Shown here piece after piece: positions 735-18,900 of a stretch of DNA of 64,000 nucleotides. Where the stretch lies: the NCBI GenBank assembly GCA_963841735.1, contig CAWJDT010000001.1:928001-992000 (forward strand), in the 5' to 3' direction. Numbering within the stretch: the stretch's first letter is position 1; every line of letters starts with the position of its first letter. A program made the position numbers and the translations under genes. The notes beneath the pieces were generated by a model. That model worked only from the letters and a program-made list of their open reading frames with translations, made no database searches and was not told the origin of the DNA. Source of the stretch: an uncultured Actinomycetes bacterium (GTDB lineage: Bacteria; Actinomycetota; Thermoleophilia; RBG-16-64-13).

Positions 735-2185
735 GCCTGGGATCCCGCCTTTCCGGCCATTTCCTTGACGAGGTCACCTATCAATCGGGCAGATTCGCCA
801 CCGAAAGCGTGGCAGAAGTCAGAGACATAGCCTTCGGCCGCCTCAGACCGCGCCGCGCGGTAGTCGCCGTCTTCCAGCAGCCGGCGGAGCAGGCCTGAGA
901 GTTCCTCGGGGCCGCGGGCATGGGGGCAGCCCGCCCGCTGGACGAGGTCGCGGTCGTTTCCTGCCAGTTCTCCCTCGGGATCGAGTACGATCACAGCACG
1001 TCTCTTCACCAAGGCGTCACTGCCCACGCCGCTACCCCGCACCACCACGACATCGGCTGCCGCCAGCGACTCGTCAAGAGTAGAACCGGTGTTCTCCATG
1101 AAGCGGACCAGCGGGTGGCGCTCAGCCACCTTCGCGTACGTGAGCCTGCTCTCGGCGGGATGAAGGCGGACCATGCCAAGGACGCCGGGCGTGGATTCGA
1201 CAGACGCGCAGAATTGCTCGGCCAGCGTTAGGTGTCCCCGGTCGGGAGAAGTCGCAAGGAGGGCCACGCGTGCGTTCGGCTCAATGCCCAACCGGGTTCT
1301 TGCTTCCTGCCGGGAGCAGGAGAGGTCGCGTGTAAGTCGGGGGCATCCTCCCACGACTATGCGCTCAGGGGGCTCACCGGCGGCCAGGAGTTTCCTCTTG
1401 TCGGCCTCCCCCCAGCAGACGATGCGGTCGGCCAGCACAGGCGCGAAGCCAATCGCCTCGGCACCCATCACGCCGTGGACCAGGGTGACGGTGGGTATCT
1501 GCAGGATCCCAGCTGCCAGGACGAGGCACGACCAGAGCTTGTTGCGGTCGTATTCGGTCAGAATGGCAGCCGGTCTGTTCTCCGTGAGAAAGCCTAGAAA
1601 GCCTTCGATCCGCTGACTCGCGACTGTGAGGGCCAACGACAGCAGGGCGAAAGTCCCGGGTGGCAGGTGATAGCGGCGGCACACGTCCTTGAGTGAGCGG
1701 TGCCACTCTGGACGACAGCTGCGGTATTGCCGCCGCCAATCATCAGTTCGCAGGCCCATTGCCCGCTCCCAGTAGAAAGCCGGGACACCTGGGGGAAGTG
1801 TGGGGGTGGCACCGCTCTGCCCGAGCAGCACCAGTGCGTGTTCGCTCCCGATCTCTCGCAGCACCGGCAGGAGCAACTCGTCGAGGCGGGGGGTCGACGT
1901 GTACCAGGTCATCAATATCCGGTCGCGGGCGTGGGCGGCGGCGACTCGGTCTCCGAGCCGGGGATGCAGCCGGTGCCGCACTCTTCTGGCCTGGGTCAGC
2001 CCCCTTGTACTCAGCCGCTGGTCTGAGTGTCCCCAGAAAAGGTTGATGACCAAGCTTTCGTTGATGGTCTCCCCTATTGGCACGCCCCTGTACTGCAGTC
2101 GCGACAGCTCCGCACACAGTTCACGAAATACCGAGGGCGTTAGACTCGGGGCGTCAGGCTGGGGTCTTTCTCGGTTGCCTATCAC
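731..2185 (-). CDS. Putative glycosyltransferase / capsule biosynthesis protein (GT-B-like; candidate nonulosonate transferase)
   Basis: HG motif, D-x-I-x-CWG, GCPR, RLHP and SGVG.DA motifs. Probable GTG start at 2185 overlaps the upstream stop (GTGA). Confidence 0.6.
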   Translation of the reverse strand: MIGNRERPQPDAPSLTPSVFRELCAELSRLQYRGVPIGETINESLVINLFWGHSDQRLSTRGLTQARRVRHRLHPRLGDRVAAAHARDRILMTWYTSTPRLDELLLPVLREIGSEHALVLLGQSGATPTLPPGVPAFYWERAMGLRTDDWRRQYRSCRPEWHRSLKDVCRRYHLPPGTFALLSLALTVASQRIEGFLGFLTENRPAAILTEYDRNKLWSCLVLAAGILQIPTVTLVHGVMGAEAIGFAPVLADRIVCWGEADKRKLLAAGEPPERIVVGGCPRLTRDLSCSRQEARTRLGIEPNARVALLATSPDRGHLTLAEQFCASVESTPGVLGMVRLHPAESRLTYAKVAERHPLVRFMENTGSTLDESLAAADVVVVRGSGVGSDALVKRRAVIVLDPEGELAGNDRDLVQRAGCPHARGPEELSGLLRRLLEDGDYRAARSEAAEGYVSDFCHAFGGESARLIGDLVKEMAGKAGSQA

Positions 2186-2823
2186 CCGGTCCTCCTGGCG
2201 GGGGCGCCCACGTAGGTGCCTGGGGTGGTCAGATCGGCCGTGACCACTGACCCGGCGCCGATGAGGCAGCCACCGCATATACTCAGGCCTTGGATGACCA
2301 CCGCTCCGGCCCCCACGATGCAGTCACTGCCGATGGTGACACCGCCGCTGATCGTGGCGCCAGGAGCGATGTGAACGTCGTCGCCAAGGCGGCAGTCGTG
2401 CTCGACGGTGGCGTTGGTGTTGACGATGCAGCTCCGGCCGGTGACGGTGCCGGTATTGATCACCGCTCCGTCGAAAACCACGGTGCCGTCACTCAACTCC
2501 ACTCCGGTATTCACCAACCCGTGCGGTGAGACGATAGCCGGGAAGGTGAAACCCAGAGATTCAATATGGAGCTGAAGTCGCGATCTGGTGGTAGATACGC
2601 TGATCTTGCCCACCCCTAGCGCGCCCGCGCAGGCAGGGTGGCTGCGGTAGATGTCCGGAAGGAGCCGGTCGTCGCCCAGGTAGGGCGCCTCCAGAAGGAC
2701 GCCCCGATCCTCGGCGTCTGTATACCCGACGATCTCCCAGGAGGTCTTTCGCAGTACAGTCATGAGGACCCTCGCATGCCCGCCCCCACCGACGACGACG
2801 ATTCTCCCAGCCACATGGCTCAT
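2182..2823 (-). CDS. Sugar acetyltransferase, NeuD/PglD family
   Basis: N-terminal GGGGHA motif, hexapeptide repeats, VEHDC motif, C-terminal GAPA. Confidence 0.9.
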   Translation of the reverse strand: MSHVAGRIVVVGGGGHARVLMTVLRKTSWEIVGYTDAEDRGVLLEAPYLGDDRLLPDIYRSHPACAGALGVGKISVSTTRSRLQLHIESLGFTFPAIVSPHGLVNTGVELSDGTVVFDGAVINTGTVTGRSCIVNTNATVEHDCRLGDDVHIAPGATISGGVTIGSDCIVGAGAVVIQGLSICGGCLIGAGSVVTADLTTPGTYVGAPARRTG

Positions 2824-2934: not shown

Positions 2935-4296
2935 TTAGAGGACCGGCCGGTTGCCCTGCAACCGCTCCCTGCGCTGCAGGTAGAGGATGAACAGATAGCT
3001 GGCGACCACATAGACCAGTCGGCCCACCAGCATGGCCTGGGGGAAGACGACCAGCTCTACCGTGTGCCGGATCAGCAAGAGCAGGGTGCCGACAAAGGCT
3101 CCTATTGCCAAGATCAAGCCGGCCACGTAGAGGTCTTGGCGCCTGACTACGTTGAAGACCGCGGTAAGAGCTTGGAAGGTTGCTACCCAAGGAATAAGGA
3201 GGCCCCACTGTATCGCCGGCACGGCGTCAACATACTGAGGGATGACCAGGCGTACAAGTGGTCCCGCCGCGAACCAGCCGGCCACTACCACCACGGACAG
3301 ACCCGCGAACGTGGCCAGCATCGGCTTTTGGGCGATCCTGATAAGACGCCTTATGCTGCAACCGGCCCCGTACTCCTGAGCCATGCGGGGGTATATCACC
3401 TGAGAGACCGCCAATGGCACGACCTCCAAGGCCGAGATGGCCACCAGGACCATCGCGTAGAGACCCATCCCCCGGGTACCCGTGAGCCTGAGCACCAGGG
3501 TGGAGGTAGTCACCCCTATCCAGAGTCCGTACACCTGACCGCCGGCGAAGATGGGCGCGCCGATCTTGAGGAGGTGTTTCAGATTGCCCCAGTTCCAGCG
3601 CGGGCCCACCCGCACCGGGCGCCAGCGGTAGAGAAGAGTCGTGCTCACGGCGGCTGCCAGCACCATCCGTACGCACAGGCCGTAGAAGCCCATGAAGGCC
3701 ACAAAGACCAATCCCGCCAGGCTGGCGGCCCCCTCGACCACATTCGCCCGAGCCAACTTGACGAAGTCGTGGGCGCTGCGGAAGGTCATCTGCAGATAGA
3801 GCGAGCCGTAGAAGAGGAACACTGCCAGGATCGCGTTGGTGAACCAGCCGGCCGCCTTCAACATCTCTCCCTCGGCGAGCTGCCATATGGCTACTCCTGT
3901 GAGGGCGACGAAGACAACCGCTCCCACAGCCAGGGCCCAGGCTTGGGCGGCTGAGGCGAGACTTTCGGCCTGCTTCACGTCTCCCTTGCCCATGAAGAAA
4001 GGGAGTTCTCGGTTGAGCCCGTTGAGGATGCCCAGTTGTGCGTTGACCGCGTAACCAAGCACTAGGCCGATGCCGGCGAAGAGACCCAGGGTGGAGGGAG
4101 CCACCATCCGTCCCAGGAGGACCCCACCGATCAGGCGCATGGCCATGGCTACCAGGTTGCCGCCGGCCAGAGAGCCGGCGAGGAAGAACACGGACCGGTG
4201 CTGCGAAGTCTGCGTCGGCAGAGCTTCGGCAGGCAGCTTCGTGGGCTCGGTTGGGTCCACAAAGTCGATGTCGCGACCGTCCATCAGAGGGTCCAT
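2935..4296 (-). CDS. Oligosaccharide flippase (Wzx/MOP family)
   Basis: About 12 hydrophobic segments, G-x-Y and YPRM motifs, location inside the glycan cluster. Confidence 0.8.
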   Translation of the reverse strand: MDPLMDGRDIDFVDPTEPTKLPAEALPTQTSQHRSVFFLAGSLAGGNLVAMAMRLIGGVLLGRMVAPSTLGLFAGIGLVLGYAVNAQLGILNGLNRELPFFMGKGDVKQAESLASAAQAWALAVGAVVFVALTGVAIWQLAEGEMLKAAGWFTNAILAVFLFYGSLYLQMTFRSAHDFVKLARANVVEGAASLAGLVFVAFMGFYGLCVRMVLAAAVSTTLLYRWRPVRVGPRWNWGNLKHLLKIGAPIFAGGQVYGLWIGVTTSTLVLRLTGTRGMGLYAMVLVAISALEVVPLAVSQVIYPRMAQEYGAGCSIRRLIRIAQKPMLATFAGLSVVVVAGWFAAGPLVRLVIPQYVDAVPAIQWGLLIPWVATFQALTAVFNVVRRQDLYVAGLILAIGAFVGTLLLLIRHTVELVVFPQAMLVGRLVYVVASYLFILYLQRRERLQGNRPVL

Positions 4297-5616: not shown

Positions 5617-5753
5617 GGTGCCTCCGTCGGTTCATACTGCTGCAATCCCACTACTATCGGTCAGTCTACCAACTAATCGCAAGTGGGCTTTGCTTGACTT
5701 ATACTCGTATATGGGCGGAGCACCTGCTTCTGAAGCGAGGAGACTCACGGGCA

Positions 5754-6335
5754 ATGGCGAGAAGGATCATCGACGTGACGCTGGCTGTTATCGGTGTGGT
5801 GCTGGCGTCCCCCCTCCTGGTCGCCATCGCTGTTCTCGTGCGAGCGAAGGACGGTTCGCCTGTGATCTACAAGGCCATCCGGGTAGGTCAGAACGGGCGG
5901 CTCTTTCACCTCTTCAAGTTCCGTACTATGGTCTCCTCGGAAGGTTCGTTGGTGACCGGCTGGGCCGACCCGCGCGTGACTCAGCTCGGGCGGAAGCTTC
6001 GGCGGCTCAAGCTTGATGAACTGCCTCAGCTGGTGAATGTTCTGCTCGGCGACATGAGCTTCGTAGGGCCTCGTCCGGAAGACCCGGCGTATGTGTCGCT
6101 CTACACCGAGGAGCAGCGTCGAGTGCTCTCCGTTAGGCCCGGGATAACCGGCGTTGCGGCCCTCGAATACTCGGATGAGGAATCTCTGCTGCGCGGCGAT
6201 GATTGGGAAAAGTCATACAGGGAAAGCATCATGCCGGCCAAACTCAAGCTCGAAATGGACTACCTGGCTCGGCGGTCTTTCTTGGCGGATGCGCAGATAG
6301 TGCTTCGGACGCTGGTCAAGCTGGTCGCTCACTAG
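5754..6335 (+). CDS. Initiating sugar phosphotransferase (PglC / Bac_transf family)
   Basis: FKFRTM, DPRVT, LDELPQL and VGPRP motifs. Single N-terminal hydrophobic helix. Start placed at ATG 5754. Confidence 0.92.
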   Translation: MARRIIDVTLAVIGVVLASPLLVAIAVLVRAKDGSPVIYKAIRVGQNGRLFHLFKFRTMVSSEGSLVTGWADPRVTQLGRKLRRLKLDELPQLVNVLLGDMSFVGPRPEDPAYVSLYTEEQRRVLSVRPGITGVAALEYSDEESLLRGDDWEKSYRESIMPAKLKLEMDYLARRSFLADAQIVLRTLVKLVAH

Positions 6336-6355: not shown

Positions 6356-7546
6356 TCAGGCTTGAAACGTCCCCACGACATCGGTTACCGCCTCAATGAC
6401 GTCGGCAACATCGCTGTCGGTCATCGCACTGTAGATGGGTAGCGACACTTCCCTCTGGTACTCGCGATTGGCCACGGGGAAGTCGTCTGGCCTCAGATCA
6501 TAAGTATCCCGGTAGTAAGGGTGCAGGTGGAGGGGGATGAAATGTACGCTGGTTCCGATGTTCCTCGCCCGCAACTCCTCGATGAAGCGCCCCCTGTCGA
6601 TGGAGAGCCGTCGCAGTGTCAGCCTCAACGCGTAGAGGTGCCAGGAGTGTTGCACCCAGGGCCGTGCCGTCGGGATCTCCACTTGCGGCAGTTCGGCGAA
6701 CACCTCTGTGTAGCGGGCGGCGATCTCGGTCCGTCGCCGGTTCATGGTGTCGAGCCTCCTGAGCTGCGCTAGGCCCATGGCCGCGGCAACATCGGTCAGG
6801 TTGTACTTGAAGCCTGGGGCGAGGATCTCGTAGTACCAGGAGCCTTCCGCGGTGTACCGGTTCCACGCATTCTTGCTTATGCCGTGCAGGGACATCAAGC
6901 GGCAGCGGTCGGCCAGCGCTTCGTCGTCGGTGCAGATCATGCCGCCTTCGCCCGTCGTCATGGTCTTGGTCGCATAGAAGCTGAAACAGGTCAATTGAGG
7001 CGAGTCGCCCAGGCCAGACCGCCGCGAGCCAATGGTCGTGCCGCGGTAGGTAGCCGGCAGAGAGTGCGCCGCATCTTCGATCATGGCCAGACCATTCGCC
7101 GCGGCGAGTCGGTCGAGAGCGTCCATTTCGGCCGGGTGACCGGCCAGATGCACCGGGAGCAGTGCCCGAGTGCGTGGTCCGATTGCCGCCGCAGCAGCCT
7201 CAGGGTCGATGTTGAGGGTGTCGCTCTCTATGTCGACAAACCGGGGCTGCGCGCCGAAGTACCTGACTACTTCAGCGGTGGCCGCGAACGTGTAGGGTGT
7301 GGTGATGACCTCGTCCCCGGCGCGCAGTCCCGCTGCCTCTAGGGCAAGGTGAAGGGCTGCCGTGCAGGAGTTGACTGCCACGGCATGGGCGGCTCCCACA
7401 CGTGCGGCGAATTCGCGTTCAAGCTCATGAGTCACGGTGCCCGTTGTGATCCAGCCCGACTCGAGCACCTCGGCGATTAGGCGTAGCTCGGACCCATCGA
7501 GGTCCGGTCTCGCAAACGGAAGGAAGCTATCCCTCACGGTGTTCAT
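6356..7546 (-). CDS. DegT/DnrJ/EryC1/StrS aminotransferase
   Basis: [27 protein letters not shown] and GFKYN motifs. Confidence 0.92.
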
Positions 7547-8186
7547 CCTGGGGGAGCCTGTTTCCGGTGCCCACAATCAACTCGCCCAGCGCTGATATGA
7601 CGTACTGCTCTGCGCACCGGCTACAGGTCGTCTCGGCGCCGGGCTGCTCCGCGCCGGCAAACCTCAGCAGTTCGCCACATCGGCATACCCAACCGGTCGG
7701 TCGGGCGGGAACCCCCGCCACCAGCCGGTGAGGCGGGACATCGTGCGTGACCACAGCTCCGGCGGCCACCATCGCGTATTGTCCTATGGTGTTTCCGCAG
7801 AGCACGGTGCAGTTCGCCCCCAGGGTCGCTCCGCGGCGCACTAGTGTGGGGACGAACTCGTCGCGACGATCCACTCCGGCGCGGGGGGTGAGCACGTTGG
7901 TGAATACCATCGACGGGCCGCAAAAGACGTGATCTTCCAACACGATCCCTGCGAAGACGGAGACGTTGTTCTGGACATGGCAGCCATCCCCGATGATCGC
8001 TCCGGCAGCCACGAAACAGTTCTGCCCGAGCACGACGCCCGTCCCTATCATGGCTCCGGCCATCACATGACAAAAATGCCAGATGGTCGTACCCCGGCCG
8101 ATCGACGCGCCTTCGTCTACCACCGCCGAAGGGTGAACGAACGGAGCCGGCATGGGATGCTCCCCTGCCTTGGGGGCACTGCTCAC
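7527..8186 (-). CDS. wbpD: WbpD/WlbB-like N-acetyltransferase
   Basis: [20 protein letters not shown] and GVPA motifs, with a C-terminal CxC...CxxC. Adjacent to wbpB- and wbpE-like genes. Confidence 0.85.
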
Positions 8187-9172
8187 TGCTGACTCCGGCT
8201 CGGGGCGCCCGGGGTTTCCCCGGACCTGCCGGTCTCAGGGGCGCCTGGGGTGACTGGGGTGGTGCGGATGCGGTAGGCGAGCTCGATGGAGGGCCTGGCA
8301 TCGGCAATGCCAAAACCCCTTCCGGCAAGAGTGGCCCGGTAGATCTCTGTGTGGAGATCGGTGAAACCTCCGCTGAACTCCACCTCTGCACCGTCGATGG
8401 TGAGCCCACGGTGGGTGGCGCTGCCCGCTGTGAGGGCCTCCGGGGGGAGGTCGGTGCGGTCGACAGATAGCAGCCAGCGCACGTCCGCCCGTTCTAGTTC
8501 GAGGCTTCCGCTCATGCGGCGGAGACCGGATGAATGTACGCGCACTTCGCGGCAGGGCCCAAACAGCCACAGCAGCAGGTCGAGGAAGTGGATGCCTATG
8601 TTGACCGCGATGCCCCCCGACTTTTCTGGTTGTCCCTTCCACGAGACGTCGTACCAGAGGCCGCGACTTGTGACGTAGCTGAGATCCACTTGGTGACGTG
8701 GGGCAGGGGTACCGGAGGCGAGTTCCGAGGCCAGCCGGGCCTTCAGCGCCACCAATGAGGGGTGAAGTCGGAGCTGCAGCACGGTGTAGATCCGACGGCC
8801 GGTTTCTTGCTCAAGCTCCTCAAGCTGATCGAGGTTCCAGGGATTGACGACCAGGGGCTTCTCGCATATGGCGTCGGCGCCGTTGCGAAGGGCGAGGCGC
8901 ATGTGAGCGTCATGCAGATAGTTGGGCGTGCAGATGCTGACGAAGTCCACGGGCCTGCCCTGCGCTCCGCCACGTTGCTTGTAGAGAAAGCGGTCGAAGC
9001 GTTCTATCTCTGGGAAGTACCGAACGTCAAAACCCATAGAATCAAGGCGGCCGACCGCGTCGTGGGGGTCAGAGGCGGCCACCAGACGGCCGCCCACATC
9101 GCGGATGGCTTGTAGGTGTCGTGGAGCGATATAGCCCGCAACTCCCACCAGCGCAAAACTGAGTTCGCTCAT
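8183..9172 (-). CDS. wbpB: WbpB/WlbA-like UDP-GlcNAcA 3-dehydrogenase (Gfo/Idh/MocA)
   Basis: GYIAPRH, PNYLH, CEKP, WKG..EKSGG, NIGIH and GFTDLH motifs. Confidence 0.9.
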
Positions 9173-10380
9173 CCCCGCCCCTTTCGGTAGAAGTCGGCGA
9201 TGACCGCCACCACCCTTTCCGCTTGGTGGTGGGTGAGCTCAGGGTAGATGGGGAGTGCCAGAGTCTGCTGGGCGGCCAGTTCGGCCTCGGGGAGGTCGCC
9301 GTGCTTGTATCCCAGGTAGGAGAAACACTCCTGAAGATGTAGCGGGATGGGGTAGTAGACCTCGCAGCCCACCCTCGTGGAGTCCAGGTGGGAGCGAAGC
9401 GCGTCGCGATCGCGGACGCGCAGGACGAACTGGTTGTAGATGTGGCGGCGGCCGGGTGCTTCGTAGGGGAGAACCACAGGCTTCGCCTCCAATGCTCGCG
9501 AACCTCCGCCCCCCCCGGGCCCGGACGTGAGCCCGGCTTCCGTGAACAGTGTTCGGTAGCGCGCGGCGTTTGCCTGCCGCGACTCCGTCCACGAGTCCAG
9601 ATGAGGAAGCTTCACCGAGAGTACCGCGGCCTGCAAGGAGTCGAGCCGGAAGTTGGCGCCAATCGTGTGGTGGACGTACTTGGGCCGGGCGCCATGAGTG
9701 CGGGTTACGTCAAGCCTCGAACCCAGATCCGGGTCTTGAGTCGTGACCGCGCCACCATCGCCCAAGCAGCCCAGGTTCTTGGAAGGGAAGAAGCTGAAGC
9801 ACCCCACGTCTCCCATCGAGCCTGCCCGCCGTCCGTCCAGCTCGGCTCCGATGGCCTGCGCGGCATCTTCCACCACCCAGAGGGCCTTATCCCGAGCGAA
9901 AGTCGATATCTGATCCATGTCTGCCATTTGACCGTAGAGATGCACTGGGATGATGCCGCGAGTCGTTGATGTGATCGCCCCGGGCAGTAGGTCTGGGTTG
10001 AGATTGAAGGTGTCGGGGTCGATGTCCACGAACACGGGCGTCGCCTTCATGCGGGCGATGGAGCCGGCTGTAGCGAAGAAGGTGTAGGGGGACGTGATTA
10101 TCGCGTCTCCGGGCTGAGTATCGAGGGCCATCAGAGCGGCCAGCAGAGCGTCGGTTCCGGAGGAGACACCGTAGGCAAAGGCCGACCCGCAGTACTTGGC
10201 AAGCTCAGCCTCAAATCTTTGGACTTCGGGGCCCATGATGAAACGCTGGGTGGCTAGGACGCCGTCGATGGCGGCGCGGATGTCTTGAGCCAAGGGAGCG
10301 TGCTGAGCCCCGAGGTCAAGCAGGGGTATGGGCTCCGTCTCCGCGGGCTGTGGATCTAGCGTGGTTCTTGCCTCACTCAC
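9169..10380 (-). CDS. WbpE/WlbC-like DegT aminotransferase
   Basis: SGTDAL, VHLYGQ, EDAAQA, SFFPSKNLG and YYPIPLHLQ motifs. Probable GTG start at 10380. Confidence 0.88.
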   Translation of the reverse strand: MSEARTTLDPQPAETEPIPLLDLGAQHAPLAQDIRAAIDGVLATQRFIMGPEVQRFEAELAKYCGSAFAYGVSSGTDALLAALMALDTQPGDAIITSPYTFFATAGSIARMKATPVFVDIDPDTFNLNPDLLPGAITSTTRGIIPVHLYGQMADMDQISTFARDKALWVVEDAAQAIGAELDGRRAGSMGDVGCFSFFPSKNLGCLGDGGAVTTQDPDLGSRLDVTRTHGARPKYVHHTIGANFRLDSLQAAVLSVKLPHLDSWTESRQANAARYRTLFTEAGLTSGPGGGGGSRALEAKPVVLPYEAPGRRHIYNQFVLRVRDRDALRSHLDSTRVGCEVYYPIPLHLQECFSYLGYKHGDLPEAELAAQQTLALPIYPELTHHQAERVVAVIADFYRKGRG

Positions 10381-11626
10381 CCTGGAAACCTCGGTGTTCG
10401 GACTCTGAGATGCGGTCAAGGAATGTGCGCGCCAGAACGCCAACGTCGTGATTGAGTCGCACGTACTGCCTCCCTCGCTCGCCCATCAGCTCCCGGTCTT
10501 TGGCCGGCAGCGACGCCAACTTCAGAATGCCGTCACACAGAGCCCCGGCGTCTTCTGGGGGGATCGACAGACCGCACTCTGCTTCCCGCACTGGGTCGTT
10601 AGCCGCTTCTACACCGTGCAGTATCGGGACCCCCGCCATCATGTAGTCGAACAGTTTGTTGGGCGAGATGCCGAATCTGTAGAGCGGGCTGCGAGTCCAC
10701 CCAATATACAGCACGTCGAATAGGCCGAGCAGTTCGGGTACCGACCGTTTTGGCACCGGTGGAAGAAACTGTACAACGCTTCCCAGATCCTGAGCCTTCG
10801 CCTGCAGACGTTCTTTCTCAGGCCCGTCGCCAACGCAGACGATACCGATGTTCGCAAGTCGGGGATCCGCCCCAGCTTCCACAAGAGTGTCCAGCGAGTT
10901 AGACAGGGCATGGCCGCCCAGGTACCCCACCATGCAGCGGGTGCCTCGGCGGATCTCCTGCAGAGCCGCAACATGGCCGTCGGGCGGGGCCTGCCTGTCT
11001 TTCTCCCATTCTTCCAGGACGACCCCGTTGGGTACGTAGATGAATCTGTCGGGGGGTAGCCCGTGTGCCGCAAGGTGCTGCTCCGCACAGGGGAGCATCG
11101 ACACGACTCTGTCGGCATGACGACAGGCGAAGTTCTCGGCGCGCTGAAGCGACCAGATGAAGGGATGTAGGGGACTCATGCCGCCCAGTTCGATAGGAGA
11201 AGTCGGCCAGAGGTCGTGCACTTCGTAGACATAGCGTGCGTTGAATCGCTTTGCGTAGCGCGCAGCCGGCCAGTTGTCCCAGGTGTAGGTAGACGAGGCG
11301 ATTACAACTTCGGGGGCAAAGTCTATGATGAGCTGGGCGCACTCCCGGCGGAGCCCTCGCAGGAAGGCCACCATGTTGCGGACCCGCCCCGCCCCGTTGC
11401 CTCGGTAGGGGGGTGTCTTGACCCAGAGATACTCTACGCCCTCCACCGTCTCCCTTTTGAGTGGGCAAGAACTGCGCGGATTAACGCGTCTCAGATGGCT
11501 GAAGTCAGCTGCGACGATGAGTACGCGATGCCCTGCGCGAACCCACTCGCGTGCGAAATAGAAGGGGCGATACTCCATACCATACTCGGGAGTGCCGGCG
11601 TAGTGATTGATCAGGAGGATGTTCAT
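10373..11626 (-). CDS. GT4 glycosyltransferase (WbuB-like)
   Basis: NHYA, EVHDLWP, VPNG and SPNKLFDYM motifs. Confidence 0.9.
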   Translation of the reverse strand: MNILLINHYAGTPEYGMEYRPFYFAREWVRAGHRVLIVAADFSHLRRVNPRSSCPLKRETVEGVEYLWVKTPPYRGNGAGRVRNMVAFLRGLRRECAQLIIDFAPEVVIASSTYTWDNWPAARYAKRFNARYVYEVHDLWPTSPIELGGMSPLHPFIWSLQRAENFACRHADRVVSMLPCAEQHLAAHGLPPDRFIYVPNGVVLEEWEKDRQAPPDGHVAALQEIRRGTRCMVGYLGGHALSNSLDTLVEAGADPRLANIGIVCVGDGPEKERLQAKAQDLGSVVQFLPPVPKRSVPELLGLFDVLYIGWTRSPLYRFGISPNKLFDYMMAGVPILHGVEAANDPVREAECGLSIPPEDAGALCDGILKLASLPAKDRELMGERGRQYVRLNHDVGVLARTFLDRISESEHRGFQGE

Positions 11627-11635
11627 GTCCGTCGG

Positions 11636-14176
11636 CTATTCCGCTGCGGTGATCTCCGCTAGGACCGCCAGAGTGACATCGATCTGAAGGGCCAAGGGAT
11701 TGCGTTCTTTAGCGGCTTGCAGGAATTCCTGCGCCAGGCCGGCGAGTTGCTCTCTGTTCATGCCTCGGTAGTATTCGGCATCGTCCCGGGTAAGTTCGTC
11801 CTTTGCCAACGAGGCGGCTGCCTGCCCGGTTTCGGGGATCGCGCCTCCGCCGGCCAAGCTTGACCAGTCACCGAGTCCCGTAAGACTGACGGACAGGTCG
11901 TCGTATTGAAAACGGAAGGCCCTACCTTCCACATAGCCTGTAGCCAGAAGCAGATCGACTACCGCGACGCCCGCATGGAAGCGTAGTGTCCAGTCCGCCG
12001 GCTCGAGTGCTATGGCTTTCTCACAACTCTTGATGGCTAGGGCGAGATCATCCAGCACCGCGCCCTCTCTGTCGGGTGCTTCTGTTACCAGGGCTTCTAC
12101 GGCCGCTCTGTGGTAGATCGTGGCCTGGGTCGAATAGGGCGCTGGGTCGGTGGGCATCAGCGACAGGGCAGACTTCGCGCGTTTGACGGCTCGGGCGGGA
12201 TCGCTGCCGGCCAAAGCGAGTGCGGAGTCCTGGTACAGAAGGGAGGCGTACGGCAATACGGTGGAGATAATCACCAGTAGTGACAGCGCCACCATGACGA
12301 TGCGGAACGCCTGGGATAGAGGTCCGGGCGGGTGGAACATCTCCTTCGCCCGGCTTCTGCGATGCTCTCGATGTCTGCGCCGGCGGTGCTTGTTCTCATA
12401 CTGCGCCGCTCGGGGAGGGATCATCATCAGGACTTCGAGCTCCCCGGACTCGTTCAAGGCCGCGGACTCTTGCCGTAGGGCGACCTCGTCCGGTTGTGGG
12501 TCCGTAGGGGCGGTCGGCACGCGCAGCCGCAGCCGCTGGTTCATCCGGGGCCACAACACTCCGACTCGGGCGTCCACGCCGGCTACGCCGGCGGCGGCGA
12601 GCAGCACGGCAGGGATGCTGACCCCGGCCATCTGCCACAGCCAATCAACACTTGTGTGGATAAGCCAGTAGGCAGCGCCGGCGAGTAGAGCCATGTCCCA
12701 ACCGTAGGCCAGGGAACTGCTCCCCCAACGGGAGTCAGTTCTCGGGTGGGTCTCCGTGGCTTGAACGCCGCCGGCCCGCTGCCGCCTGCGCAACCATGTC
12801 TGCTTCATCCCCCGCCAGCCGGCAATGCAGCGGGGCCACAGCATCCCCCCCAAGATGAGAAGGATGCCCCCGAAGGCGAACACCCCTCCCACTATCCCTG
12901 TCTCGCCCAACACCTGCAGCTCGAATGAGTGCGCCTGTCGAGGTTTGTATGTCTCAGCGCTACGGAGGCGGTCATACTGGAAGACAAAGTTGTCGGCTCC
13001 CACGCCCAGAACGGGAGATCCTTCCAACTCCTGCACGGCGACCTTCCAGATGCCCACTCGGCCGCTGGAGCTAAGCAACGCGAACCGGGTGTGGCTTTCG
13101 GTAGCGGTTTCCGGCGCTTGCCCGGTGAATTGGCGCCAGGTCTGTGAGGTCCACTTGATCGGACCGCCCGCATCGTGCGTTAGGGTGATCGAGCCGTATA
13201 CGAGGCCACCCACGGCCGCGACCAATACGACGGTTCCGAAGATCACCTTCATCAGCCGGCTGACGCGCACCCATTTCTCGAGTAAGGCCAGGATCATGCC
13301 GATAAGCGCGGCCGTGAGGGCGGCGGCCAGCAACGTGCGTACCGCGAGTGCTCCTCCTACTGCGTCCGGCCCTTCGAGCCAGTAACGGTTGAGGCGCGGG
13401 AACACATACGCCATGAGTAGGGCGGGCACCAGCAGGTAGAAGAGAGTACGCAGGCGGGCGGGGGATATGACGAACATGAAGATGAGAGTGATTGCGAGAG
13501 TCCATACGGCCCCGCGTGACTGAGTCATGAAGGACAGTCCCAGAAGACCGGTCGCCAGTCCCAGCGCGATGCCACGCACCGGCGCCCGCTCTTCGGGTCC
13601 GGCCGCCAGCCACATGAGCGGCCAGAATGTGACCAGAAGGAGGGCGGCGGCGTGGTTGGGGGCGCTCACCGGGTAGCCGAGGCGATTGGTGTAGAAGAGC
13701 CCGGCGATGTTCTCCGTAGTGCCGAGTTTCCACATACAGACGGCAAACAGGACACACCCCCCGGCCATCACCAGGTAGCGGAAGACCCTTCTGGCCCCCT
13801 GGTCGCTGAGGTAGACGATGGCCAGCGCAAAGACCAGCAGGTAGGTGAAGGTGCGGCCGCTCTCCAGCCACACCCTGGTGGGAGAGTCTGCCCATATGGC
13901 GGATACGGCTACCCAAAGGCTGTAGCCGCCGAACAGGAGGAGGGCAGTGAGGGACAGCTGTCCCGGGCGGCGCGGATACGCCACCAACAGCGAGACGATC
14001 AGGCCGAAGACTCCCAGACCCAGACTAGGCGGCAACCACTGATGCGCGATGAAACCGCCCGAAGAGTAGACCAGCCACAACCAGACGGCAAAGACTACGG
14101 CGAGTGGTGCTCCCCAGATCCCAGCTCTACGAAGCCGGCTGCCGCTCTCAGGAACGGTGCTGCCGGCAGGTGACAA
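11636..14176 (-). CDS. O-antigen ligase / Wzy_C-domain membrane protein with a TPR-like C-terminus
   Basis: Many TM helices, TQSRG, R..IW, PVLGVGADNF, AHS...ETG and H..VDW motifs. C-terminal helical repeats (AIALEP). Confidence 0.8.
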   Translation of the reverse strand: MSPAGSTVPESGSRLRRAGIWGAPLAVVFAVWLWLVYSSGGFIAHQWLPPSLGLGVFGLIVSLLVAYPRRPGQLSLTALLLFGGYSLWVAVSAIWADSPTRVWLESGRTFTYLLVFALAIVYLSDQGARRVFRYLVMAGGCVLFAVCMWKLGTTENIAGLFYTNRLGYPVSAPNHAAALLLVTFWPLMWLAAGPEERAPVRGIALGLATGLLGLSFMTQSRGAVWTLAITLIFMFVISPARLRTLFYLLVPALLMAYVFPRLNRYWLEGPDAVGGALAVRTLLAAALTAALIGMILALLEKWVRVSRLMKVIFGTVVLVAAVGGLVYGSITLTHDAGGPIKWTSQTWRQFTGQAPETATESHTRFALLSSSGRVGIWKVAVQELEGSPVLGVGADNFVFQYDRLRSAETYKPRQAHSFELQVLGETGIVGGVFAFGGILLILGGMLWPRCIAGWRGMKQTWLRRRQRAGGVQATETHPRTDSRWGSSSLAYGWDMALLAGAAYWLIHTSVDWLWQMAGVSIPAVLLAAAGVAGVDARVGVLWPRMNQRLRLRVPTAPTDPQPDEVALRQESAALNESGELEVLMMIPPRAAQYENKHRRRRHREHRRSRAKEMFHPPGPLSQAFRIVMVALSLLVIISTVLPYASLLYQDSALALAGSDPARAVKRAKSALSLMPTDPAPYSTQATIYHRAAVEALVTEAPDREGAVLDDLALAIKSCEKAIALEPADWTLRFHAGVAVVDLLLATGYVEGRAFRFQYDDLSVSLTGLGDWSSLAGGGAIPETGQAAASLAKDELTRDDAEYYRGMNREQLAGLAQEFLQAAKERNPLALQIDVTLAVLAEITAAE

Positions 14177-14202
14177 TCTCTATCACTCGCCCGCTATGGA
14201 GT

Positions 14203-14571
14203 CTAGTTCTTCTCGGCGGGTTTGTTAGGCCGTGAAAGCTTTCTGAGGGCCACGCCACCGCCGACCAAGGCGACCACCACGACCACCAGGATCGCGATCT
14301 GGAAGCCGGTGAACGGGTACTCGTCCCGGCTGAGCCGGTCTTTCACCACGTCATCCAGCCGTTTCTTGAAGTCACCGTCAGAGTACTGGGCCAAGGTGGC
14401 GTCATTGAGATAGGCGTTCAGCTCGGCATCGGTGTAGCTCCGGGTGAGCTTGCCGTTGGCCACGAAATCGTCGTAGATGTCTTGGGGAGTCCAGCCGGCC
14501 AAGGCCACAGTGGTCAGTAGAAGATTGATGACTATCGCACCAATGAACAGAAGTACCAGTTTCTTGACCAT
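14203..14571 (-). CDS. Small exported protein with a C-terminal YPFTG sortase-like sorting signal
   Basis: Strong RBS (GAGGAGG), signal peptide ending ALA, then YPFTG, a TM helix and a basic tail RKLSRPNK. Confidence 0.75.
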   Translation of the reverse strand: MVKKLVLLFIGAIVINLLLTTVALAGWTPQDIYDDFVANGKLTRSYTDAELNAYLNDATLAQYSDGDFKKRLDDVVKDRLSRDEYPFTGFQIAILVVVVVALVGGGVALRKLSRPNKPAEKN

Positions 14572-14713
14572 GGCCCCTCCTCAAGTTCACTATGACCGTC
14601 TGATGACGGGTCTGTCTGCCTTGAAGCCGTAAATCCAATGTAACAGTATACCATACTCAGAGTCTATACTATCACTAGAGTCTATCACCTCTACCCACAG
14701 TCAAAAGCGGCCT

Positions 14714-16771
14714 CTATTTTACCTTCACCGGCTTCTCCGCGGGCAAACCCTGCAGAGAAGCATACTCCGGGACGCATTCTTGGAGGGCAAGCATGATGCC
14801 CCGCCGGTCTCCATGTTGCTCGGCGAGGGCGATCAGATCCCTGAGCGCTTGTTTGAAGTGATGGCTATCACCGTTGTTTGTCGCGCTACTGGCCCGAGCG
14901 CAGACCTGCTTGACCAAGGGATGGCTGGTCGGCAGGGCTTCCTCATACGCGTAGGTTAGGCTCTCGTCCAGTTTCTCTCCAGGGCGAAGTCCTGAGAACT
15001 CCACACCGAGAGAACGTGCCTCGTCCTTCCAGTAGAAATCGATCATTCGCTGGGCCAGGTCGATGATTGAAACCGGGGCGCCCATCTCGAGCACGAAGGT
15101 GTTCAGAGAGCGCTCTCGATCCCGCTCTGTTCCGTCGAGCATGATGGCCGCCTGCAGAACTAATTGAACGGCCTCTTCGATAAGCATGAAGTAGCGGGTC
15201 ATCTCCGGATGGGTGATAACCAAAGGGCCACCATTCTCTATCTGGCTCCTGAAGATGGGGATGACACTCCCCTGACTACCCAGCACGTTGCCGAACCGGA
15301 CCGAAGCGAACAGAGTCCCTGGGTGTCGCGCACCGAGGTCGCGCACGATGAGCTCGCCTATCCGCTTGGTCGCGCCCATGACGTTGCAGGGCTCGACCGC
15401 CTTGTCGGTGGAGATGTTGATGAAACGTTCAGTGCCGTATCGGGCCGCCATCTCGGCTACCGAGAGAGTGCCTTTGACGTTGTTGAGAACAGCTTCGTCG
15501 GGGCTCAACTCCATCAGGGGCACGTGTTTGTATGCCGCCGCATGGAAGACCAGCCGGGGACGGTGGAGGGCGAATATCTTCTCCAACTTATCCTTTTGCA
15601 GGATGCTGGCGGGGTACAGAACGTAGTGCCGGTAACCCTGGCTTTGCAGTCGCTCGTGCAGGTCGTACAGAGATGATTCGTCGTGGTCGACCATCACCAG
15701 CCGCCCAGGATCGAATCGGGCGATCTGTCGGCACAGTTCCGAGCCTATGGAGCCACCCGCGCCTGTGACCAGCACGGTATGTCCCTGGATGAACTCAGAC
15801 AGGGCGCCGATATCCGTCTCGACGCTGGGTCTGCCGAGAAGGTCTCTGATGTCGAGATCGCGGGCGTCGTCCAGACTGACCTTACCCGATACGAGCTCGG
15901 CTAGGCTCGGCAGGATCTTCAGGGGCACACCCGCCGGTTTGCAGAGGCGATAGATGGAGACGACCTCCTCGGCCGTAGCCGAGGGGATGGCAACGATGAC
16001 CTGCGTTATCCCCTGCTTCTTGACCAGTGCGGGGGTATCGGCCACCCTACCCAAGACGGGCAGGCCCTGGATAGTCATGTACTGCAGGTCGCTGCGGTCG
16101 TCGACAAGGCCTACTACCCGCAGCCCCAGCGACGGAGTGCGCTTGATCTCGCGGATCAACATGTCCGCGGCCTGCCCGGCCCCGACCAGCAGAAGGCGCT
16201 CGCTGGGCTGCTCGGGTTGCTGGGTGATCTCAGCCTTGACCCGGTGGGAGAAGCGGGATCCGACCATCAGGGTGATAGTGAGTGCGCTGCCGCCGACGAC
16301 CACCGACCGGGGAGCGAGATAGCCCACTCCGTCGGAGAAGAGCGGCCAGACCACCACGATCAGGAGAAGGGAGGCAAAAGCCAATAGGCCCGACTCCACA
16401 AGCCGCATCGCTTGGGCTAGGCCCATATAGCGTCCCACGATCGAGTAGACGCCGGTAAACCAGTTGACCACCACATGCATGACCACGGCGATCACAGCAA
16501 AGACGGCGAAGTCCGCCGACCAGCTCTTCCAGTCGGCGAAGCTCCCTGCTGAGCGGAAATTGAGCATCAGGTAGTACGAGAGCAAGACGATGGCGACGTC
16601 AGTCATCATCGCTCGTATGTGACGAGCGCGCGGGAGTCCAAACCGCTTGCCACCCATCAGAGGACCTTGCCTCTGCGTAGTGCCGGCAATGAAGTCGGGC
16701 TCATCGGAGTTCCGCGCAGGCATTGCTCTCTCCGCTGAAGACTTTTCGTGATCGTGGACAAGATATCCCAT
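14714..16771 (-). CDS. Membrane-bound nucleotide-sugar 4,6-dehydratase (PglF/WbpM/CapD family)
   Basis: Four N-terminal TMs, GAGQA, GAGGSIG, HAAAYKHVP, STDKA, RFGNVLGS and RPGEK motifs. Exact start uncertain. Confidence 0.92.
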   Translation of the reverse strand: MGYLVHDHEKSSAERAMPARNSDEPDFIAGTTQRQGPLMGGKRFGLPRARHIRAMMTDVAIVLLSYYLMLNFRSAGSFADWKSWSADFAVFAVIAVVMHVVVNWFTGVYSIVGRYMGLAQAMRLVESGLLAFASLLLIVVVWPLFSDGVGYLAPRSVVVGGSALTITLMVGSRFSHRVKAEITQQPEQPSERLLLVGAGQAADMLIREIKRTPSLGLRVVGLVDDRSDLQYMTIQGLPVLGRVADTPALVKKQGITQVIVAIPSATAEEVVSIYRLCKPAGVPLKILPSLAELVSGKVSLDDARDLDIRDLLGRPSVETDIGALSEFIQGHTVLVTGAGGSIGSELCRQIARFDPGRLVMVDHDESSLYDLHERLQSQGYRHYVLYPASILQKDKLEKIFALHRPRLVFHAAAYKHVPLMELSPDEAVLNNVKGTLSVAEMAARYGTERFINISTDKAVEPCNVMGATKRIGELIVRDLGARHPGTLFASVRFGNVLGSQGSVIPIFRSQIENGGPLVITHPEMTRYFMLIEEAVQLVLQAAIMLDGTERDRERSLNTFVLEMGAPVSIIDLAQRMIDFYWKDEARSLGVEFSGLRPGEKLDESLTYAYEEALPTSHPLVKQVCARASSATNNGDSHHFKQALRDLIALAEQHGDRRGIMLALQECVPEYASLQGLPAEKPVKVK

Positions 16772-16946: not shown

Positions 16947-17498
16947 GTGACTGACGTCATGAAGAGTTGCGCAAGCTGCGGAAACACTCAGGCAGCCGGA
17001 GACTTCTGCGAAAAATGTGGCAACCGCTTGGCGGCGCCGGCGGCTGAGGCAGCGGCACCCGCGGCGACCGCGGCGTTTCAGGCACCGCCGGCCCCGGCTG
17101 CCTACCCGCCCGGAGCATATGCCCCCGGCGCGTACCCGCCCGGCGCCTACCCGCCCGGCGCCTACCCGCCCGGCACCCAGCCCCCCTATGGCTATGCGCC
17201 GCAGTACGCTCCGCCGCGTGAGCCGGGGCCGTGGAACAAGCTGTTCGACCTCTCCTTCCAGGGGTTTGTCACGCCCGCCACTCTGAAGGTCCTGTACTTC
17301 ATCATCCTGGGTACGATCGGTCTCTTCTTTGTGTTCAGCATCGTCTGGGGCTTTATGTTCCACGACGGCGCCATCGGGGCCATGTGGCTGTTTGTCACTG
17401 TGGCAATGACCGCCTTCCTGTTCTTCATGACCCGCATTCTGTTTGAGTTGGTTTCCACAACGTTGCGGCACAGCGGTGAAGTCAAGAAGGACGTCTAG
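16947..17498 (+). CDS. DUF4282-like membrane protein with a zinc ribbon and AYPPG repeats
   Basis: CxxC...CxxC, Pro/Gly/Tyr repeats, LFDLSF..FVTP motif, TM pair, R...E motif. Confidence 0.75.
   Translation: MTDVMKSCASCGNTQAAGDFCEKCGNRLAAPAAEAAAPAATAAFQAPPAPAAYPPGAYAPGAYPPGAYPPGAYPPGTQPPYGYAPQYAPPREPGPWNKLFDLSFQGFVTPATLKVLYFIILGTIGLFFVFSIVWGFMFHDGAIGAMWLFVTVAMTAFLFFMTRILFELVSTTLRHSGEVKKDV
17100..17174 (+). repeat. Five 15-bp tandem repeats (GCCTACCCGCCCGGC) encoding AYPPG
   Basis: Read directly; some copies are slightly diverged. Confidence 0.9.
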
Positions 17499-17604: not shown

Positions 17605-18900
17605 TCAGCGGGCCGGTGTGTGGATGCCCATTCCTTCGTAGGCGAAACCCAGCCGTACCAGTGCATCTCCGTCCAGCGCATTGCGCCCGTCGATGACGAT
17701 GGGCTGGGCCATGCGCTGTTTCACCACTGCCCAATCGAGATCCAGGAACTCGCTCCACTCGGTCACCAACACGCAGGCATCGGCGTGTTCCAGGGCGGCA
17801 GTGGCAGAAACGGCAAACTCCATGGCCGGGAGGATGGCCCTCACAGCGTCCATTGCCAGGGGGTCGTAGCCGACCACTCTGGCGTCTTCGGCTAGGAGCC
17901 GGCCACCCAGGACTATCGAAGAGGCCTGGCGGATGTCGTCGGTGTTGGGCTTGAACGAAAGCCCAAGGAGCGCGATGCGCCTGCCGCGCAGGTCGTCACC
18001 TAGGTGACGCTTGAGCTTTCCTATCACCCGTCGCTTCTGGAGTTCGTTCACCTCGATAACAGCGCTGAGGAGCTGGAAGTGGTAGCCCGAATTGGAGGCG
18101 ATCTGCTTGAGGGCAGATACGTCTTTGGGGAAGCAACTGCCGCCATAGCCTATGCCGGCCTGCAGGAAATGCGGGCCGATGCGCCGGTCGAGGCCCATTC
18201 CGTGGGCGACGACGGTGACGTCCGCGCCTGTCATCTCGCAGACGTTGGCGATCTCGTTGATGAAGCTGATCTTGGTGGCCAGAAAGGCGTTGCTGGCGTA
18301 CTTGATCATTTCCGCCGAGGCCACGTCGGTAGCGAGGATGGGGCAGTCGAGGCCCGCATAAAGAGCGGCTACCCGTTCGGCGATGCCCGGGCTGTCGGCA
18401 CCGATCACCACACGGTCGGCCCGAGTGAAATCGTCGAGGGCTGAGCCTTCGCGCAGGAACTCAGGATTGGACGCATAGCGGATGCCGTGTAGGCCGCGCT
18501 CGGCCAGCTTCGCCTGCACCAGCGCTCCGGTGCCGACGGGCACCGTAGACTTGACGACGAGGACGTGGTCCCCGTCGGGGGAGGACAGGTTGTCGAGGGC
18601 CTGCCAGATGCGGGAGAGATCGGCGTCCCCGGAGGGACTGGGCGGAGTGTCCACGCAGATGAATATGAACTCGCCCGTCGAGTACGCTTGGGCAGCGTCA
18701 GTGGTGAACTCGATGCGCTGACGGTTGGCCGCGATCAGCTCGGCAAGCCCCGGCTCGTAGATGGGGACTCCACCCTCGCGGAGCACCCGGATCTTGTCGG
18801 CGTCAACGTCCATGGCCACCACGTCATGGCCGAGAGCGGCCATGCAGGCGGCTGTGACCAGGCCCACATACCCGGTGCCGACTATCGTCAGTTTGTTCAC
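17605..18900 (-). CDS. ugd: UDP-glucose 6-dehydrogenase
   Basis: GTGYVG, KSTVPVG, NPEFLREG, GYGGSCFPKD, FKPNTDD and DGRN motifs. Confidence 0.95.
   Translation of the reverse strand: MNKLTIVGTGYVGLVTAACMAALGHDVVAMDVDADKIRVLREGGVPIYEPGLAELIAANRQRIEFTTDAAQAYSTGEFIFICVDTPPSPSGDADLSRIWQALDNLSSPDGDHVLVVKSTVPVGTGALVQAKLAERGLHGIRYASNPEFLREGSALDDFTRADRVVIGADSPGIAERVAALYAGLDCPILATDVASAEMIKYASNAFLATKISFINEIANVCEMTGADVTVVAHGMGLDRRIGPHFLQAGIGYGGSCFPKDVSALKQIASNSGYHFQLLSAVIEVNELQKRRVIGKLKRHLGDDLRGRRIALLGLSFKPNTDDIRQASSIVLGGRLLAEDARVVGYDPLAMDAVRAILPAMEFAVSATAALEHADACVLVTEWSEFLDLDWAVVKQRMAQPIVIDGRNALDGDALVRLGFAYEGMGIHTPAR

Follow-up and report, generated by a model that had tools for sequence, protein, structure and literature searches.

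Organisation of the gene pair

The window, i.e. the whole 64,000-nucleotide stretch of contig CAWJDT010000001.1 analysed here, comes from an uncultured actinomycete of the class Thermoleophilia and carries on its reverse strand two adjacent genes that are the subject of this report. The upstream gene codes for a small protein of 122 aa with a sortase-type sorting signal, a proposed glycan carrier, and the downstream gene for a Wzy_C membrane enzyme of 846 aa, a proposed O-oligosaccharyltransferase (O-OTase). The features of the pair and of the gene directly upstream of it are as follows.

14203-14571, reverse strand: small sortase-signal protein, 122 aa, proposed glycan carrier (open reading frame, ORF; ribosome-binding site before the ATG; 132-cluster family)
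14497-14571, reverse strand: signal peptide, residues 1-25 (hydropathy; A23 and A25 conserved; cleavage site predicted from the sequence)
14323-14496, reverse strand: head domain, residues 26-83, four short helices, acidic (model m4ce2335fff6d; conserved positions)
14383-14385, reverse strand: codon of Tyr63, candidate O-glycosylation site and putative acceptor (Tyr in 136 of 141 representatives; interface residues 61-67)
14305-14319, reverse strand: YPFTG, variant LPXTG-type sortase motif, residues 85-89 (conserved; LPFTG or LAFTG in relatives)
14245-14304, reverse strand: hydrophobic membrane segment of the sorting signal, residues 90-109 (hydropathy; model helix 89-112)
14206-14244, reverse strand: basic tail, residues 110-122 (starts with Arg-Lys; R110 in 126 of 141 representatives)
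11636-14176, reverse strand: Wzy_C membrane enzyme with outer tetratricopeptide repeat (TPR)-like domain, 846 aa, proposed O-OTase (Pfam Wzy_C 8.5e-12; model; WaaL fold match)
12875-13339, reverse strand: Wzy_C domain, residues 280-434, with outer catalytic loop (Pfam; conserved H416 region)
11639-12322, reverse strand: C-terminal helical-repeat (TPR-like) domain, residues 619-846 (model helices 619-845; Foldseek TPR matches)
14714-16771, reverse strand: PglF-like membrane-bound sugar-nucleotide 4,6-dehydratase, adjoining the small gene on its upstream side (Polysacc_synt_2 5.9e-98)

The small ORF begins with an ATG, seven bases downstream of a GGAGG, and lies upstream of the large one, from which it is separated by a gap of 26 bp (14177-14202). 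Coordinates and architecture were rechecked, and both ORFs, their 26-bp spacing and the protein layout agreed with those given in an earlier first-pass annotation of this DNA, which had proposed that the two genes form a glycan display system.

The 142-bp spacer upstream of the small gene (14572-14713) is AT-rich for this genome and contains repeated GATAGACT-like words, and a similar word is located directly before the start of the Wzy_C gene. The words in the spacer could be promoter or operator elements; a consensus scan of 14572-14713 found nothing.

The small protein and its family

The N-terminus of the small protein consists, by hydropathy, of hydrophobic residues 5-23 followed by A-L-A. 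The head of ~58 aa is acidic, with 11 Asp, 4 Tyr and 4 Thr counted from the sequence, and was modelled with a block pLDDT of 81-91 over residues 31-80. A profile search of 1.84 billion representative proteins yielded 424 relatives at E<=0.001, and the family comprises 132 clusters at E<=0.01, all of 112-138 aa. The related records are metagenome-assembled genomes of Actinomycetota, many labelled Thermoleophilia or Gaiellales, and the protein atlas likewise returned only unnamed Actinomycetota clusters. Few head positions are kept across 141 representatives (I32, D35, G40, L42, Y46, [TS]47 and Y63), of which D35, Y46 and Y63 are near-invariant; in the membrane helix, L102, G106 and R110 are conserved in 126-135 of the 141. 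A phylum-wide genome sample screened with the wider alignment gave 9 of 301 genomes with only 13 candidates scored per genome, a figure that is uninformative.

No Pfam or NCBIfam family was found for the small protein, and a Foldseek search with its model gave no match at E<=0.001; entries for S100 proteins, with E>6, carry no meaning. Two candidate assignments were set aside. The weak match to DUF7248 (E 0.008; 16.6 bits, cut-off 27) is confined to the signal peptide, and an EF-hand-like calcium loop seen by eye in the head is degenerate in the window protein and was backed by no tool.

Sorting signal and sortase

Judged from its sequence, the tail of the small protein is a sortase signal. 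The xPxTG motif, whose conservation the first-pass annotation had left to be established, is kept in all 121 close family members (FPFTG in 98, YPFTG in 20, and one each of three others) and in 129 of the best 150 of the 424 wider relatives (LPFTG in 86 and F/Y/V-P-x-T-G in 43; the others are one spurious match and 20 motif-less representatives, mostly fragments or near-misses). P86, T88 and G89 do not vary among 30 aligned relatives, and Tyr or Phe at the first motif position is non-canonical. Full-length homologues of a sister family in the same class carry LAFTG, and LAFTG-type motifs are described as class E sortase motifs in the relevant part of PMC8225981. The combination of LPFTG, hydrophobic segment and Arg tail was also detected, with the C-terminal part of the profile, on unrelated proteins of 248-328 aa, so that the tail is a portable module. 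Since the helix features are common to the LPFTG tails of unrelated proteins, L102, G106 and R110 are part of the sorting signal.

Among 61 relatives searched with curated anchor models, TIGR01167 matched one, and other sortase-substrate models matched 3-18, in the tail only and below their cut-offs. A six-frame scan of the genome with a loose C-terminal pattern (xPxTG, hydrophobic segment, basic residues) gave 119 ORF tails, nearly all in non-coding frames or in polytopic membrane proteins; the only small secreted proteins among them were the window protein and its FPMTG paralogue, described below (both judged by eye). A coding-frame-filtered scan, whose filter left out the FPMTG paralogue, gave 95 ORFs ending in a helix followed by basic residues, and by eye the motif was present only in the window protein.

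A sortase, on which the first-pass proposal depended, is encoded in the genome: there is one, closest to class E, with 110.6 bits, below that model's cut-off of 160. Sortase cleavage of YPFTG between Thr and Gly, with linkage to peptidoglycan, would be the expected outcome.

Head-domain homologues also occur in genomes of family f2, most of which lack a sortase match and which serve as a natural control. The 11 f2 head-domain homologues examined include ten that end in a membrane helix and Arg tail, none of the 11 has xPxTG, and 8 of their 11 genomes gave no sortase match. For family f2 as sampled, a sortase was found in 12 of 36 genomes, and in none of the 13 from one f2 genus. The f2 homologues (L130-L140) have a Pro-rich linker ahead of the membrane helix and Arg tail.

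The Wzy_C enzyme

Residues 280-434 of the large protein match Pfam PF04932 (Wzy_C) with 45.5 bits against a cut-off of 31.7. The structure was predicted with a pLDDT of 82 and a pTM of 0.82, and its best Foldseek match is the O-antigen ligase WaaL (7tpg; E 1.7e-4, probability 1.00, TMt 0.61). By sequence profile, the best solved relative is 9rmk, 'Oligosaccharyltransferase' (E 2e-4), over the H416-bearing outer (catalytic) loop only; 9rmk is not among the Foldseek matches of the enzyme model. In 39 homologues H416 is nearly invariant and S417, T426, G427 and G430 are invariant. H416 and S417 open an H-S-x9-G-x-x-G word in the outer loop, which we take to be a ligase signature. As modelled, the enzyme is ligase-like, with a WaaL-like polytopic fold and a large His-bearing outer loop.

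The first-pass annotation had called this protein a Wzy_C/TPR ligase. The Wzy_C assignment holds; Pfam gave no TPR match at E<=0.01, and what is seen at the C-terminus is a helical-repeat domain in the model. Its profile match to the TPR of SGT1 has an E of 0.67, and MamA, RPAP3-TPR, IFIT5 and SPY are among the Foldseek matches with probabilities of 0.93-1.0 but E of 0.3-0.5. As an Arg-rich loop and a transmembrane segment (623-641) precede the TPR-like domain, it should lie outside the membrane.

On the question, also raised previously, of whether the enzyme is a ligase or a plain Wzy polymerase, the gene content of the locus favours the former. The same ~38-kb cluster contains a separate, short Wzy_C protein of 486 aa beside a kinase-like gene of the CbiA/ParA type, and this short protein is the natural candidate for the polymerase.

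Conservation of the pairing

The adjacency of the two genes is conserved, as the earlier proposal supposed. In 37 related loci fetched around homologues of the small gene, a homologue of the 846-aa Wzy_C enzyme is no more than 1.2 kb away from the small gene in 28 cases; in two more, the distance is 2.8-4.1 kb. Two gene orders occur, namely PglF-like gene, small gene, Wzy_C gene, and Wzy_C gene, small gene; in most close loci, the first gene upstream of the small one codes for a PglF-like homologue. No Wzy_C gene was found in the 4.6-9 kb fetched around the motif-less f2 homologues (0 of 11).

The genome itself holds six Wzy_C matches, of which only two, the long forms of 846 and 814 aa, adjoin a gene of the small family. 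The second pair (L039 6092-9061, i.e. C1:591092-594061, outside the window) consists of the 814-aa Wzy_C gene, followed by a 118-aa FPMTG paralogue and then a 508-aa Bac_transf gene, with Wzz/tyrosine-kinase and CpsB phosphatase genes next to it. As this pair adjoins a Wzz/kinase gene, the argument from a separate polymerase is weaker there.

Some related loci show departures from this arrangement. At L014 (7324-8012), the alignment of the Wzy_C homologue beside the small gene with the window enzyme is limited to residues 5-87 and 631-781 of the latter, and the catalytic core of the homologue seems to be missing, by deletion or through an assembly fault. In L086-L088, from the same genus, a short ORF beside genes for a UDP-sugar 6-dehydrogenase (UGDH) and a DUF4282 protein matches only the C-terminal part of the family; its motif is decayed, its basic tail is different, no PglF or Wzy_C match was found there, and it looks like a remnant. 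In L092 and L093, of sister family f3, the order is an LCP gene, a gene for a protein of 565-587 aa (no Pfam match at E<=1e-6), a divergent small LAFTG protein, Wzy_C and UGDH.

Predicted complex of the two proteins

The complex of the 846-aa enzyme with residues 26-122 of the small protein was predicted with each chain given its own alignment. The scores, which express the model's own confidence, were 0.82, 0.85 and 0.84, against 0.01 for the best of three controls. Of 157 solved complexes, 116 attain the tool's score mark, as do 2 of 215 mismatched pairs; these counts hold only roughly here because custom alignments were used. The runs agreed in at least 68% of contacts, and the partner pLDDT was at least 71. 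The confident interface places residues 55-67 of the small protein against enzyme loops 38-46, 155-175, 410-414 and 512-516, and the same stretch contacts the TPR-like domain at 647-656, 682-686, 730-734, 764-767 and 829-831. Enzyme residues 410-414, beside which residues 61-67 of the small protein are placed, come shortly ahead of H416. The Tyr63 loop is set in the model between the TPR-like domain and the catalytic loop. The conserved Y63 lies within this predicted interface loop, and Y46 and T47 lie outside it. The model thus supports direct binding of the small protein by the enzyme.

Mini-peptides beside Wzy_C genes and the conserved tyrosine

In families f4, f5, f7 and f10 of the class, LPFTG mini-peptides occur beside Wzy_C and/or Bac_transf genes in place of the small protein. 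Their mature parts are 30-51 aa long, of low complexity and not detectably related to the head domain. The order at L074 is Wzy_C, mini-peptide, Bac_transf, second mini-peptide and sortase, this sortase being 35% identical to that of the genome from which the window comes, and at L107 it is Wzy_C, mini-peptide and sortase.

Of the 17 mini-peptides that adjoin a Wzy_C or Bac_transf gene, 16 contain exactly one Tyr. In the remaining peptide there are two, of which one is near the boundary with the signal peptide. Without exception the Tyr falls within the first 8-55% of the mature part, and no other residue type is patterned in this way. Composition-preserving shuffles reached 16 of 17 single-Tyr peptides in 2 of 200,000 trials, a test that overstates independence because the mini-peptides are partly related and were found with one of them as query. 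In the f2 homologues without the motif, the equivalent of Tyr63 is kept in only 6 of 11.

A further tiny ORF, at 3756-3863 on the reverse strand of L089 (G123), lies between UGDH and Wzy_C genes and codes for a signal peptide and, with FPVTG as its motif, the tail typical of the family. This could be a carrier that is minimal or one that has decayed.

Envelope of the host

The assembly is 2.82 Mb in 8 contigs and 89.7% complete. The lipid A genes that the first-pass annotation expected to be lacking were indeed not detected: neither LpxC nor Omp85 was found, and with an incomplete assembly this means 'not found' and nothing further. The gene content, with one sortase, four LCP genes and no LpxC or Omp85 match, fits a monoderm envelope. 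The LCP gene nearest to the pair is at C1:1027003, ~85 kb away, and no LCP gene was found in the glycan cluster of the window or in its 20-kb left extension. The idea that a lack of LCP genes forces an alternative attachment route is ruled out, as the genome has four of them.

Proposed function and alternative explanations

All the computational checks suggested in the first-pass annotation turned out in favour of its proposal. Taken together, the motif, the adjacency, the envelope checks and the predicted complex favour the proposal of a ligase with a minimal sortase-anchored carrier. That the small protein is a sortase substrate partnering the ligase-like Wzy_C enzyme is in our view highly probable. 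We also incline, with less assurance, to the further view that the enzyme acts as an O-OTase which loads an undecaprenyl-pyrophosphate (Und-PP)-linked glycan onto this carrier, probably at Tyr63, before the sortase fixes the carrier to peptidoglycan. The analysis establishes the gene pair and its conservation, the kind of tail on the small protein, the enzyme fold and a predicted complex that passes its controls; the glycan transfer, the acceptor residue and the sortase cleavage are inferred here. In such a pathway of protein O-glycosylation and display, the cluster would build the Und-PP-linked glycan and flip it outward, while the signal peptide would export the 122-aa protein, which would stay in the membrane by means of the C-terminal helix and the basic tail. 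The 846-aa enzyme would then grip the small head between its TPR-like domain and outer loops and move the glycan en bloc onto this head, with Tyr63 as the most likely site. Finally, the single class-E-like sortase would cut YPFTG between Thr and Gly and join the loaded carrier to peptidoglycan.

Several observations weigh against this proposal. With respect to the sorting signal, YPFTG differs from both LPXTG and LAXTG, and neither the Pfam (Gram_pos_anchor) nor the NCBIfam (TIGR01167) anchor model matches the window protein. A sortase is present in 27 of 29 genomes holding the small-protein family and in all 28 same-family sampled genomes with the small protein, a co-occurrence that says little because sortases are common in the class (159 of 201 genomes). 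With respect to the enzyme, curated O-OTase models match far below their cut-offs (TfpM, 19.7 bits against 600; PEP_O_lig_1, 25.8 against 188.1), and the Wzy_C family, according to its Pfam description, also holds polymerases, which sequence alone does not separate from ligases here. The pairing is not universal either: seven of the 37 loci have no Wzy_C gene near the small gene (one at a contig edge, six with only a PglF-like gene upstream), and two sister-family copies lie among GDP-sugar genes without Wzy_C. In L092 and L093 an LCP gene is located two genes from the small gene. The complex score cannot tell a substrate from a stable subunit, the partial relatedness of the mini-peptides tempers the shuffle test, and the L089 relative, with a mature part of ~12 aa, has no Tyr.

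An alternative that we regard as unlikely is that the small protein serves the Wzy_C enzyme not as a substrate but as an accessory or regulatory subunit with a single membrane pass, acting for example in chain length, gating or wall positioning, with the motif serving only its later release or turnover. The large and confident predicted interface includes membrane-helix residues 98-103, and the conservation of L102, G106 and R110 points the same way until it is noted that unrelated LPFTG tails share these features, which then reflect the signal and not a partner contact. The f2 homologues, which keep the head and a plain anchor without the motif, indicate that a membrane-bound form can exist; these homologues, however, adjoin Wzy_C in none of the 11 loci examined, and the motif is kept in 129 of the 150 wider representatives. 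The role of a folded subunit is also difficult to reconcile with the unrelated, low-complexity mini-peptides of 30-51 aa in the same place beside Wzy_C, whose only common features are a single Tyr and the tail.

Slightly less probable still is a scheme in which an LCP phosphotransferase glycosylates the sortase-anchored small protein, and the Wzy_C enzyme polymerises or trims the lipid-linked glycan and binds the carrier within an assembly complex. The precedent is Actinomyces oris, whose LCP enzyme LcpA attaches the glycan to GspA, a sortase substrate encoded by the adjacent gene (PMC6381275); since an LCP gene also lies near the small gene in sister loci L092 and L093, an LCP protein could be the transferase, and the four LCP genes of the genome and the polymerases of the Wzy_C family leave room for such a division of labour. 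The LCP genes are nevertheless absent from the cluster and its left extension, the nearest being the one ~85 kb away, and what recurs beside the small gene from family to family is Wzy_C and/or Bac_transf and not an LCP gene. Moreover, the short 486-aa Wzy_C protein can serve as polymerase, and the complex model sets the conserved Tyr loop beside the catalytic loop of the long one.

Finally, it is very improbable that the adjacency has no functional meaning and that an ordinary sortase substrate merely travels with envelope genes, for although surface-protein and glycan genes often cluster and seven of the 37 loci lack a nearby Wzy_C, the pair is within 1.2 kb in 28 of them and in two gene orders, the genome has two independent pairs with six Wzy_C genes in 2.8 Mb, non-homologous mini-peptides occupy the same position elsewhere, and the complex scored 0.84 against 0.01.

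Comparison with known systems

The first-pass annotation had likened the pair to PEP-CTERM/EPS systems. PEP-CTERM/exosortase systems (TIGR03097) also combine a C-terminal sorting signal on many small or low-complexity proteins with polysaccharide loci and a Wzy_C-type protein, and TIGR03097 is the best NCBIfam match of the enzyme, albeit far below its cut-off (25.8 against 188.1). These systems use an exosortase and another motif, and occur in diderm hosts. They are not the closest analogue, which is the GspA/LcpA/SrtA system of Actinomyces oris. As described in PMC6381275, glycosylation there likewise takes place at the membrane and is followed by attachment to peptidoglycan by the housekeeping class E sortase, and the acceptor gene adjoins the transferase gene. 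In that account the transferase is an LCP phosphotransferase, whereas the conserved neighbour here is a Wzy_C/WaaL-like protein with a TPR-like domain, and the GspA monomer is of ~25 kDa, whereas the carrier proposed here has 122 aa and the mature part of its relatives goes down to 30-50 aa; the two are compared by pathway, not by sequence.

With regard to the enzyme, WsfB of the monoderm Paenibacillus alvei is a Wzy_C protein with a C-terminal TPR that is predicted, in the part of PMC2943079 dealing with it, to be the O-OTase for a Tyr-linked S-layer glycan; a C-terminal TPR is present in PglL as well. WsfB/WsaB, PglL, PilO/TfpO and TfpM are likewise Wzy_C proteins and transfer an Und-PP-linked glycan en bloc onto a protein hydroxyl, but the acceptor in the present case would be neither an S-layer protein nor a pilin, but a mini-protein with a sortase signal as its only other conserved feature. 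The pilin gene adjoins tfpO. WaaL (7tpg) shares the fold of the membrane domain and the His-containing outer loop, and differs in its acceptor, lipid A-core, in its size of ~400 aa and in having no TPR-like domain; the present host shows no LpxC or Omp85 match.

With regard to the carrier, the chaplins and the proteins of NF058583 ('LAXTG motif-containing small protein') are also small, secreted and anchored by class E sortase. NF058583 gave weak matches in 18 of 61 relatives, in the C-terminal signal only (26.6 bits against a cut-off of 65), and the head domain of the present family is unrelated to any curated family. Chaplins are not known to be tied to glycan genes.

Full-text literature searches found no paper linking Wzy_C proteins to sortase substrates, the results being an unrelated S. 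aureus paper, reviews and papers on GspA, and the present data suggest that a short protein stalk attaches glycan to the wall in a manner not yet described. Only tentatively would we go further and count a disposable sortase-signal peptide, loaded at its single conserved Tyr by a dedicated Wzy_C/TPR O-OTase, as a third route by which monoderm actinobacteria of this class fix surface glycans to the wall, the other two being LCP ligation and binding of a non-covalent kind. On that view, the carrier would have the part for wall glycans that lipid A-core has for O-antigen, and the versions of 30-50 aa would define a natural Tyr 'sequon' for this enzyme class. If the main proposal is correct, the attachment of wall polysaccharides in Gram-positives would no longer be a matter of LCP proteins only, sortase would be the last step of a glycan-display pathway, and glycoengineering would gain a minimal single-Tyr acceptor and a matched O-OTase from a little-studied, mostly uncultured actinobacterial class.

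The surrounding glycan cluster

The pair was previously thought to stand at the head of the glycan cluster. This is not the case, as the UGDH gene, a DUF4282 gene and the PglF-like dehydratase gene precede it. The other features of the cluster within the window are listed below.

17605-18900, reverse strand: UDP-sugar 6-dehydrogenase (UGDH) (Pfam)
10373-11626, reverse strand: GT4 glycosyltransferase (Pfam)
7527-10443, reverse strand: DegT aminotransferase, GFO/IDH/MocA oxidoreductase and hexapeptide acetyltransferase, probably of a diacetamido-uronic-acid-type pathway
5694-6335, forward strand: small Bac_transf phosphoglycosyl transferase, 213 aa, initiating enzyme (Bac_transf 6.2e-54)
2935-4296, reverse strand: 453-aa protein with ~10-11 hydrophobic segments and no family match, candidate flippase (hydropathy)
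3-2823, reverse strand: cytidylyltransferase (cut by the window edge), 515-aa soluble protein without known family and PglD-like acetyltransferase

The cluster extends ~20 kb to the left of the window (C1:908001-928000). This extension carries genes for a NeuB-type synthase, a radical SAM/SPASM enzyme and nucleotidyl transferases, among them an NTP transferase with CBS domains, together with a DUF4910 gene and genes for a pyruvyl transferase, the four Rml enzymes (RmlABCD), glycosyltransferases and a beta-helix protein, as well as the 486-aa Wzy_C protein and its kinase-like neighbour. Together with the cytidylyltransferase at 3-734, the gene content of the extension suggests a nonulosonic-acid branch.

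The DUF4282 gene (16947-17498, forward strand) is divergently oriented between the UGDH and PglF-like genes and is found in the same place in many related loci. Its product, of 183 aa, has a zinc-ribbon-like CxxC pair at the N-terminus and combines a repeat of Pro, Gly, Ala and Tyr with the DUF4282 membrane domain.

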